Shown in pieces: positions 39,924-42,305 of a stretch of 64,000 nt of DNA. How positions within the stretch are numbered: the stretch's first letter is position 1; every line of letters begins with the position of its first letter. A program made the translations under genes and the position numbers. Origin of the DNA: Escherichia coli 042 (GTDB taxonomy: Bacteria; Pseudomonadota; Gammaproteobacteria; Enterobacterales; Enterobacteriaceae); assembly GCF_000027125.1 (NCBI RefSeq), contig NC_017626.1; one strand, written 5' to 3'. Under the pieces are notes generated by a model. That model made no database searches. It was not told the origin of the DNA and worked only from the letters and a program-made list of their open reading frames with translations.

Positions 39924-42305
39924 GTGGATATGGCAGCAGTAAAAATCTCAGGTGTGCTGAAAGATGGTGCGGGAAAACCAATACAGAACTGCACTATTCA
40001 ACTGAAGGCAAAGCGTAACAGCACCACGGTACTGGTGAACACGGTGGCCTCTGAAAATCCGGATGAAGCCGGGCGTTACAGCATGGATGTTGAGTATGGT
40101 CAGTACAGCGTCACCCTGCTGGTTGAAGGTTTTCCGCCTTCACATGCCGGGACCATTACCGTCTATGAAGGTTCCAGACCAGGTACGCTGAATGATTTTC
40201 TCGGTGCCATGACGGAAGATGATGTCATGCCGGAGGCATTGCGTCGTTTTGAGGAAATGGTGGAAGAAGCGGCACGCAACGCTGAAGCCGCCTCTCAGAG
40301 CGCAGCGGCGGCAAAGAAATCCGAAACTGCAGCGGCATCATCGAAGAACGCGGCGAAAACCTCAGAAACGAATGCAGCTAACAGCGCACAGGCGGCAGCG
40401 GCCTCGCAGACTGCATCGGCAAACTCCGCAACAGCAGCTAAAAAATCAGAAACCAACGCGAAAAATAGCGAGACAGCCGCAAAGACGAGCGAAACCAACG
40501 CAAAGTCCAGCCAGACGGCAGCGAAGACCAGCGAAACGAATGCCAAAGCCAGTGAAACTGCGGCAAAAAACAGCCAGGTTGCAGCAGCCCAAAGCGAGAG
40601 CGCGGCAGCCGGTTCTGCGACTTCAGCAGCTGGATCAGCAACTGCTACGGCTAACAGCCAGAAAGCTGCGAAGACGAGTGAAACTAACGCAAAGTCCAGC
40701 CAGACGGCAGCGAAGACCAGCGAAACGAATGCCAAAGCCAGTGAAACTGCGGCGAAAAGCAGTCAGGATGCAGCGGCTCAAAGCGAGAGTGCCGCAGCCA
40801 GTTCTGCAAGCGCGGCGGCTGCTTCTGCCACTGCATCAGCTAACAGTCAAAAAGCAGCAAAAACCAGTGAAACCAACGCAAAGGTGAGCGAAACAGCGGC
40901 AGCGAACTCAGCGAAAGCATCGGCAGCAAGCCAGACGGCAGCTAAAGCAAGCGAAGATGCAGCCAGAGAGTACGCAAGCCAGGCTGCGGAGCCGTATAAA
41001 TATGTCTTACAGCCGCTGCCTGATGTGTGGATACCATTTAACGATTCGCTGGATATGATTACGGGCTTTTCGCCGTCATATAAAAAAATTGTTATTGGTG
41101 ACGATGAAATAACGATGCCTGGCGACAAGATTGTTAAGTTTAAACGTGCATCGAAAGCAACCTATATTAACAAATCTGGTGTGCTGACAGAGGCTGCCAT
41201 TGACGAGCCACGATTTGAACGTGATGGCCTGCTTATTGAGGGGCAAAGAACAAACTACATGCTCAATTCGGAAAGCCCTGCCAGTTGGGGGCGATCTTCA
41301 AATATGGATGTGCCCGAAACAGGGACGGATAATTTTGGTTTTACCTATGGAAAGTTTGTCTGCAACGATTCTCTGATTGGGCAAACCTCAGCCATTAATA
41401 TGGCATCAATTGCTGCAACAAAGTCAGTTGATGTCTCAGGCGATAATAAACACGTGACAACCTCATGTCGTTTTAAAACAGAACTGCAGGTAAGGTTGCG
41501 TATCCGGTTTGATAAATATGACGGTAGCGCAACAACTTTTCTTGGTGATGCGTATATTGATACACAAACGCTTGAAATTAATATGACAGGCGGTGCTGCC
41601 TCAAGGATTACAGCGAGAGTCAGAAAGGACGAAGCTACCGGATGGATTTTTGCAGAGGCAACAATTCAGGCAATTGATGGGGAGCTAAAAATAGGCTCTC
41701 AGATACAGTATTCTCCTAAGCAGAGCGGGGCAACCGTATCTGGTGACTATATTTATCTGGCCACCCCACAAGTAGAAGATGGGCCTTGTGTATCATCTTT
41801 TATTATATCAGGAGCGACGGCGGCGACCCGCGCAAGCGATATAGTTACAGTTCCAATTAAGAATAATCTTTATAATCTTCCTTTTACGGTTCTTTGTGAG
41901 GTACATAAGAACTGGTATAAAACGCCAAATGCAGCGCCACGTGTTTTTGATACCGGCGGTCATCAAACCGGAGCGGCTATTATTCTTGGCTTCGGTCGTT
42001 CAACAGATTACGACGGATTTCCTTATTGCGATATTGGAGGAGCTAACAGACGGGTAAACGAAAACGCATCGCTTGAAAAAATGGTTATGGGGATGCGTGT
42101 AAAGTCAGAGCAGTCTACGTGCTCAGTAAGTAACGGGCATATATCCAGCGAAACAAAAACCACATGGTCCTGTATTCAGAACACCGCAATTATCCGTATT
42201 GGAGGCCAGACTACAGCCGGGTTACGTCATTTATTTGGTCATGTCAGGAATTTCAGAATATGGCACAAGGCATTGACTGATGCTCAGGTGGGGGAGTCAA
42301 TCTAA
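39924..42305 (+). CDS. Side tail fibre protein (Stf-like), 793 aa
   Basis: Ala/Ser/Thr-rich repeat region (KTSETNAK...). Confidence 0.8.
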   Translation: MDMAAVKISGVLKDGAGKPIQNCTIQLKAKRNSTTVLVNTVASENPDEAGRYSMDVEYGQYSVTLLVEGFPPSHAGTITVYEGSRPGTLNDFLGAMTEDDVMPEALRRFEEMVEEAARNAEAASQSAAAAKKSETAAASSKNAAKTSETNAANSAQAAAASQTASANSATAAKKSETNAKNSETAAKTSETNAKSSQTAAKTSETNAKASETAAKNSQVAAAQSESAAAGSATSAAGSATATANSQKAAKTSETNAKSSQTAAKTSETNAKASETAAKSSQDAAAQSESAAASSASAAAASATASANSQKAAKTSETNAKVSETAAANSAKASAASQTAAKASEDAAREYASQAAEPYKYVLQPLPDVWIPFNDSLDMITGFSPSYKKIVIGDDEITMPGDKIVKFKRASKATYINKSGVLTEAAIDEPRFERDGLLIEGQRTNYMLNSESPASWGRSSNMDVPETGTDNFGFTYGKFVCNDSLIGQTSAINMASIAATKSVDVSGDNKHVTTSCRFKTELQVRLRIRFDKYDGSATTFLGDAYIDTQTLEINMTGGAASRITARVRKDEATGWIFAEATIQAIDGELKIGSQIQYSPKQSGATVSGDYIYLATPQVEDGPCVSSFIISGATAATRASDIVTVPIKNNLYNLPFTVLCEVHKNWYKTPNAAPRVFDTGGHQTGAAIILGFGRSTDYDGFPYCDIGGANRRVNENASLEKMVMGMRVKSEQSTCSVSNGHISSETKTTWSCIQNTAIIRIGGQTTAGLRHLFGHVRNFRIWHKALTDAQVGESI
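40440..40900 (+). repeat. Tandem in-frame duplication (about 190-bp unit, 2+ copies) within stf
   Basis: gcaaagtccagccagacggcagcgaagaccagcgaaacgaatgccaaagccagtgaaactgcggc occurs at about 40499 and 40689. Confidence 0.8.

Follow-up and report, generated by a model that had tools for sequence, protein, structure and literature searches.

The window analysed here is a stretch of 64,000 nucleotides from Escherichia coli 042 (NC_017626.1), and the gene of interest within it encodes a fibre protein standing in the order J, lom, fibre gene, which is also lambda's order. J, the tip attachment protein, carries J-specific Pfam domains (35803..39198), and Lom, which lies between J and the fibre gene, carries an Ail_Lom domain (39266..39865). 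The genes downstream encode a phrog_1361 protein (93 aa) and an S74-chaperone tail fibre protein; where a 100% identical copy of the fibre gene occurs in another genome, only a truncated tfa fragment is found further downstream. The program-made list of open reading frames (ORFs) starts this one at a GTG (39924), giving 793 aa, and residue numbers throughout follow that 793-aa numbering. The ATG start used in Table 1 is that of the RefSeq annotation of a 100% identical gene copy.

Table 1. Features of the fibre gene, its shaft, and the frames overlapping it, in window coordinates
Feature	Position	Strand	Basis
Side tail fibre gene, lambda Stf type, 791 aa from ATG	39930..42305	+	ORF list; profile and structure matches
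34 unbroken heptads (aa 115-352), predicted alpha-helical proximal coiled-coil shaft	40266..40979	+	heptad layout; AlphaFold2; lambda homology
Copy 1 of the 189-nt (63-aa, 9-heptad) unit	40464..40652	+	repeat calls; offset scan
Copy 2 of the 189-nt unit, 85% identical to copy 1	40653..40841	+	repeat calls; offset scan
Partial third copy, the unit's first two heptads	40842..40883	+	Tandem Repeats Finder array end at 40883
68-nt core, first occurrence	40497..40564	+	perfect identity to 40686-40753
68-nt core, second occurrence	40686..40753	+	perfect identity to 40497-40564
C-terminal distal module, presumed receptor-binding, exchangeable between fibres	41010..42305	+	homology breakpoints; NF048003
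Alternative-frame ORF, 222 codons	40219..40887	+	ORF list
Alternative-frame ORF, 146 codons	40295..40735	-	ORF list

A lambda Stf-type fibre and its heptad shaft

The first-pass annotation had called this a side tail fibre gene, and its placement as the lambda Stf-type side tail fibre of a lambdoid E. coli prophage is supported by profiles, structure, gene order, and DNA matches. The prophage tail fibre N-terminal domain PF08400 spans aa 5-134 (E 7e-67; score 223.9 bits, cut-off 26.6), and the phrog_1419 'tail protein' profile matches from end to end (793/793 positions). Residues 5-97 align with a 94-residue 'tail fiber protein' chain in PDB entries 9e7m/9mgh (E 7.5e-49), which is the solved collar domain of the lambda side fibre (gpStf) and to which these residues are ~90% identical. 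The J-lom order is consistent with this assignment, as are DNA matches of 98-100% identity in the phages HannyBb, Tritos, 2G7b, and PhiR63_1 and in many complete E. coli genomes. The RefSeq entries named 'prophage tail fiber N-terminal domain-containing protein', for example WP_000741766.1, match over the full length and have the two-copy shaft described below in common with it. The window gene is an ordinary member of the phrog_1419 family, with no substantive difference from it.

The likeness to lambda ends in the distal part. In lambda this part resembles T4 gp37 and needs Tfa. In the window gene it contains a domain like that of gene transfer agent (GTA) head-spike fibres at aa 437-637 (NCBIfam NF048003; score 50.5 bits, cut-off 36), and the small genes that come next also differ from lambda's. 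The combination that marks lambda Stf proper, a gp37-like distal part with a tfa gene downstream, is not found here.

Directly after the collar domain and linker comes a long run of heptads in lambda's register. The consensus is A-A-K-x-S-E-T: Ala fills position 1 in 25 of the 34 heptads (Asn in 7) and position 2 in 30/34, Ser fills position 5 in 32/34, and Thr fills position 7 in 20/34, with Lys or Ala at position 3 and Glu, Ala, or Gln at position 6. The small residues at positions 2 and 5, spaced alternately by 3 and 4, fit what would be a coiled-coil core. Lambda Stf (orf-401) shares the register (xAAxSxx), which begins at the same point after MVEE(A/V)ARNA, and its shaft has ~38 heptads against 34 in the window gene.

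For residues 1-380, AlphaFold2 models the monomer as six strands and then helices at 104-252 and 261-355; six strands and then a helix is also the arrangement described for lambda. Confidence is mostly at pLDDT 68-83 over residues 130-350, with a dip to 42-62 around 241-270 and a mean of 65, and the low-confidence break at 253-260 is probably a product of the monomer model folding back on itself. In Ur-lambda, residues 102-393 of gpStf, which follow the collar domain, are described as forming a proximal trimeric coiled coil, and the side fibre is a trimer, present as four fibres per virion, that binds a cell-surface receptor (PMC12617516). From lambda homology together with the helical monomer model, we infer that the shaft of the window gene would likewise be a trimeric coiled coil.

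A 189-nt tandem unit within the shaft

The first-pass annotation had described an in-frame tandem duplication of approximately 190 bp between 40440 and 40900. Tandem Repeats Finder reports a period of 189 nt at 40467-40883, with 2.2 copies, 84% matches, and 0 indels, alongside weaker periods of 21 and 42 nt in the same region, and a separate repeat search returned a pair of 189-nt copies (40445-40633 and 40634-40822) at 83% identity. The array of units, at 40464-40883, is thus correctly bracketed by the earlier coordinates. The peptide quoted in that annotation, KTSETNAKSSQTAAKTSETNAKASETAAK, is present twice, at residues 187-215 and 250-278. The 189 nt of the unit make 63 codons, which keeps the duplication in frame.

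Because the whole region is made of 21-nt (heptad) repeats, some self-similarity is built into it, and self-identity in 40266-40979 was compared at every offset. At an offset of 189 the best 189-nt window reaches 85%, while the best 189-nt window at every other multiple of 21 nt reaches 50-61% and offsets that are not multiples of 21 give at most 44%. The 189-nt signal therefore stands far above the 21-nt periodicity, and the tandem identity that a self-comparison should reveal is plainly there. The two full copies lie head to tail with a period that is a multiple of three and an identity of 84-85% over a background of 50-61%. Compared in register, the offset-189 match string decays past ~40694+189. 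The lambda shaft, in contrast, has no long-period duplication, its self-identity being at most 0.54 at any multiple of 7 aa.

The divergence between the copies is spread unevenly. A core of 68 nt is perfectly identical in both, and when the unit's 29 mismatches were placed randomly, an identical run of 68 nt arose in 0 of 100,000 trials. Within the 64-kb window, a 30-mer taken from the core is found at two places only, where 0 occurrences are expected by chance. Loss of a unit is likely to proceed by crossover or slippage at this core.

Age of the duplication and loss of one unit

The history of the repeat was followed in 80 related loci retrieved from IMG/VR, in protein clusters, and in complete genomes. 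The span of the shaft was measured between two anchor motifs, MVEE[AV]AR[NH]A and EDAAREYASQ; these replaced a strict regular expression and a low-complexity run, both of which were broken by substitutions such as ATANSQK. Among 39 sequences (viral-contig loci together with IdasGreatGrand and the window), 38 have the two-copy anchor spacing of 232 aa, and only phage IdasGreatGrand is shorter, at 169 aa, or 63 fewer. The offset-189 signal is present in 46 related loci, at 86-99% in the best 126-nt window, and among these loci the C-terminal exits are of at least two kinds, one group having a different exit motif. Within the related loci examined, the signal is absent from IdasGreatGrand, lambda, and distant Stf genes with ~15-57 heptads. 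Of 47 close loci, 46 keep the two-copy form and one, L001, has a single copy; a spread sample of complete genomes has the two-copy span in every full-coverage match.

Comparison of 36 distinct DNA alleles indicates when the copies parted. Equivalent copies in different alleles (1 with 1, 2 with 2) average 95% identity, while copy 1 and copy 2 average 85%, ranging from 78 to 92% within a gene. The unit's 3' third has about 14 differences between the copies that are fixed in 35 of the 36 alleles. Because equivalent copies are more alike than copies within a gene, and because these differences are fixed, the duplication is older than the divergence of the alleles; it is an old and widespread feature, passed on stably within the allele family. 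Continuous homogenization of the copies (concerted evolution) was considered and rejected, as a polymorphism in the core is in most cases confined to one of the two copies, as at unit positions 62 and 89. One allele alone of the 36, L033, has a conversion tract between the copies. An early gene conversion, or a unit that was mosaic from the start, could account for the absence of fixed differences from the core.

The same data bear on whether the duplication, or the single-copy alleles, might be artefacts of sequencing or assembly. Short-read assemblers can be confused by a perfect repeat of 68 nt, and many database homologues are partial proteins that stop at contig ends. Against these points, the two-copy span is unchanged across ~1000 complete genomes and several phages that were sequenced independently, the copies are separated by fixed differences, and single-copy alleles stand in complete chromosomes from different laboratories. 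An artefact is thus very improbable, and it was rejected on these three grounds for the window and for the single-copy alleles of complete genomes.

Still less credible is the idea that the long ORFs in other frames are real overlapping genes whose constraints shape the repeat. Their lengths of 222 and 146 codons, and an analogous ORF (orf206b) annotated on the strand opposite the stf heptad region in the lambda record, give it some appeal. However, the segment is only 9% T, so that stop codons are suppressed by composition alone, and 125 of 183 variable sites fall at third codon positions of the stf frame. Only 25 of the 36 alleles keep the +1 frame open over the whole 726-nt segment, and on the minus strand every frame is interrupted within it in all of them. 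These ORFs were set aside as by-products of composition that are not consistently open across alleles.

A second part of the first-pass annotation held that copy number may vary by recombination and thereby alter fibre length. Natural alleles that lack exactly one unit (-189 nt, -63 aa) do exist, in phage IdasGreatGrand (PP925829.1) and the E. coli strains MSB1_4I (NZ_LR898874.1) and CB209 (NZ_CM144249.1), the last two being 25-heptad, single-unit genes in complete chromosomes. In all, one-unit alleles comprise three complete records (L001, L084, and L085) and six of 120 protein clusters, the clusters coming mostly from partial draft assemblies. These alleles have the N-terminal domain, the shaft sequence, and the exit motif in common with the window gene and are 189 nt shorter. 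Copy number thus differs among otherwise near-identical alleles, as in proteins P0053 and P0011, which are identical except for the 63 residues, and the difference seen was between one and two full units. An allele with three full copies was not seen among the 120 protein clusters, the 80 IMG/VR loci, or the sampled complete genomes. The expectation of variation across relatives is therefore borne out for loss to one unit and not for gain, and the locus does not vary rapidly, the two-copy form being stable and predominant. A contingency locus or fast phase-variable repeat was rejected on the same observations: the copies are 15% diverged, their differences are fixed, and the two-copy state prevails.

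The structure of the one-unit alleles indicates how they may have arisen. Alignment programs (MAFFT, BLAST) place the 189-nt or 63-aa gap arbitrarily, so heads and tails were assigned by direct comparison around the unique core. The one-unit alleles follow copy 1 as far as the core, which they have once, and copy 2 after it. In CB209, 8 of 635 nt differ from the window upstream through the core; downstream, 1 of 287 nt differs from the sequence that follows the core of copy 2, against 126 of 287 when compared with the sequence after the core of copy 1. IdasGreatGrand likewise has the head of copy 1 (86/90), a single core, and the tail of copy 2 (134/150). Sequence from copy 1 upstream and from copy 2 downstream of one core is the product expected from a deletion between the cores. 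The differences between the copies predate the alleles, and the single-unit alleles are therefore best read as derived deletions. Their nearest neighbours in both the N- and C-terminal flanks are two-copy alleles, to which at least three of their backgrounds are nearly identical. A single-unit allele produced by a new deletion would look identical to one acquired by recombination with another single-copy allele, and a crossover anywhere within the core would leave the same sequence.

The reading that accounts best for these observations, to which a probability of roughly 0.85 can be given, is an ancient in-frame duplication of a nine-heptad block in the shaft of a lambda Stf-type fibre, followed by occasional loss of a unit mediated by the core. 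A block of 63 residues was duplicated in tandem, in frame, inside the predicted proximal coiled-coil shaft, and the copies then diverged except in the core, which is perfectly identical over its 68 nt in the window allele. Homologous recombination or replication slippage between the cores would, on the evidence of the junctions, occasionally delete one unit and leave a shorter fibre that is still in frame. As the unit is a whole number of heptads, the register of the coiled coil is kept. The rise of a coiled coil is ~0.148 nm per residue, and the duplicated unit is calculated to add ~9 nm to the ~35-nm shaft, taking it from 25 to 34 heptads. The observation and the interpretation of the first-pass annotation are, in essence, supported as correct. 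The literature searched contained no specific account of block duplications in Stf shafts. The duplication itself is ordinary rather than surprising, a conserved block in a known kind of fibrous coiled-coil shaft.

Shaft length and exchange of the distal module

What the extra block does for the phage, if anything, is a separate matter. The duplication and its loss may be a selectively neutral accident in a shaft that tolerates any number of heptads, with no functional meaning, and this account has a serious claim even if the odds are slightly against it. Stf relatives range from ~15 to 57 heptads, and close relatives differ by -7, -14, -28, -63, and -105 aa, with protein clusters that are 7, 14, or 28 aa shorter in addition to those lacking 63. 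A variant lacking 315 nt (19 heptads) is found in complete genomes. Clusters of odd length are also present (-4, -12, -30, -41, and -68 aa), mainly from partial draft assemblies, and some of them may be assembly errors. No association of copy number with a particular C-terminal module was seen, and the lack of three-copy alleles also sits comfortably with neutrality. On the other side are the near-universal retention of two copies, in all but one of the close loci and in every full-coverage match of the complete-genome sample, and the fact that they are kept despite a 68-nt perfect repeat that should favour deletion, which suggests some purifying selection for length. The neutral account concerns function only and is compatible with the structural description of the unit.

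At the opposite extreme, shaft length could be an adaptive 'reach', with recombination at the core acting as a slow, discrete length switch for adsorption. The block could be kept or dropped to suit the thickness of O-antigen or capsule or the length of the central J fibre. We consider this improbable, and any effect of shaft length on adsorption or host range is hypothetical.

A third possibility places the emphasis on the DNA rather than the protein: the shaft would serve mainly as a patch of homology through which co-resident lambdoid prophages exchange the C-terminal receptor-binding module, and the duplication would enlarge the patch. In experiments, the lambda stf/tfa region recombines homologously with the resident prophages Rac and Qin (PMC3945230). 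Of 5426 complete E. coli genomes, 4822 contain DNA that matches the N-terminal and shaft region; the median genome has 2 such places and the maximum is 14, the highest counts being 11-14. Identity to relatives often stops at or just past the shaft (query 1-897, 1-1166, and 1-1332), and the phages ESCO3 and VogelGryff have only the C-terminal module in common with the window gene (query 1087-2382, starting at ~41010 in the window). Lengths after the shaft vary among loci with a common N-terminal part, and the same duplicated shaft is joined to several C-terminal lengths and to two exit motifs.

For the duplication itself, however, this explanation is doubtful. The module boundaries lie downstream of it, at ~41010 and beyond, and none lies within it. 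The N-terminal domain by itself offers several hundred bases of homology, and, apart from the one-unit deletion and the conversion tract in L033, no junction internal to the unit was identified in hybrids. The shaft has a conserved attachment module on one side and a distal module that is open to exchange on the other, with the duplication off the module boundary, and the ancient nine-heptad block duplication with occasional unit loss is retained as the preferred reading.

Similar heptads can be found in other phage proteins. The Klebsiella phage capsule depolymerases of the solved structures 7vyv, 7vz3, and 7lzj have heptads of the KTSE(D/T)NAK type at approximately residues 127-172 of the chain (E 0.002-0.003). 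The match is weak, short, and of low complexity, and the remainder of the protein is unrelated.

Beyond annotation the significance of the locus is small, the mildly interesting question being that of selection on shaft length. It adds an example of a lambda-type side fibre whose shaft changes length by whole-heptad blocks. For genome annotation, the repeat can break or collapse short-read assemblies and gives rise to false ORFs in the alternative frames. The natural alleles also bear on the engineering of phages by exchange of Stf receptor-binding modules: they indicate that, in nature, the fibre can do without nine or more of its shaft heptads. The allele pair with 25 and 34 heptads in near-identical backgrounds provides ready-made material for tests of shaft length and adsorption.

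Variation of the repeat unit and the shaft

The two copies of the 189-nt unit do not differ evenly along their length. Among the 36 distinct DNA alleles of the fibre gene, the 3' third of the unit carries about 14 fixed differences between copy 1 and copy 2, whereas the 68-nt core (40497-40564 vs 40686-40753) shows fixed differences in 0 of 36. For the lack of fixed differences in the core, a conversion event early on, a unit of mosaic origin and DNA-level constraint are all possible reasons.

One allele departs from this pattern. In L033, a related fibre-gene locus (IMGVR_UViG_2802429226_000012), copy 1 has the copy-2 variants in its 3' part at sites that otherwise differ consistently between the copies, and its two copies are therefore 92% identical to each other. 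This tract within the heptad region is likely the product of gene conversion between the two units. Shaft length also varies beyond a one-unit indel, as seen with the fibre gene at positions 2207-4273 of locus L086 (E. coli CUVET18-565, NZ_CP115320.1), which is shorter by 315 nt (15 heptads), with both units lacking the Ala/Gly/Ser-rich 3' part.

Reading frame, start codon and distal part of the fibre

Two long ORFs lie in other frames of the heptad region (see table). They were rejected as compositional artefacts because T makes up only 9% of this segment and because variation tracks the stf frame. An analogous ORF, orf206b, is annotated opposite the shaft of lambda's stf in the lambda reference record. 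The mechanical ORF for the fibre gene opens at GTG 39924 (39924-39932), while the RefSeq annotation and the N terminus of lambda Stf (MAVKISG) indicate that translation really begins at ATG 39930, which would give a protein of 791 aa.

Unlike that of lambda, the distal part of the fibre is not gp37-like. Residues 437-637 match the NCBIfam "phage head spike fiber" domain (GTA_spike_fiber). Phages ESCO3 and VogelGryff have the distal part in common with this fibre as a separate module, but their N-terminal parts differ.

Features in and downstream of the fibre gene
Feature	Position	Strand	Remarks
Alternative-frame ORF, 222 codons	40219-40887	+	Heptad region, non-coding frame
Alternative-frame ORF, 146 codons	40295-40735	-	Heptad region, non-coding frame
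Fibre distal part	41010-42305	+	aa ~363-793; GTA_spike_fiber domain match
First gene after fibre	within 42305-43972		93 aa; phrog_1361, unknown function
Second gene after fibre	within 42305-43972		346-aa tail fibre protein; phrog_4563; C-terminal Peptidase_S74 intramolecular chaperone domain
Third gene after fibre	within 42305-43972		102 aa; phrog_1443
ABC-3 family transporter permease (manganese/iron type)	44324-45181	-	Just past tail fibre genes

Downstream genes and the prophage end

Three small genes occupy the place of tfa 3' of the fibre gene, and related prophages carry a 705-nt version in place of the middle one. Given the ABC-3 permease on the opposite strand just past these genes, the prophage must end at about 44.0-44.3 kb. 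In strain FDAARGOS_1279 a 100% identical fibre gene has different neighbours (pinR, ydfK and ompN), so prophages inserted elsewhere in the chromosome can carry this fibre module too.
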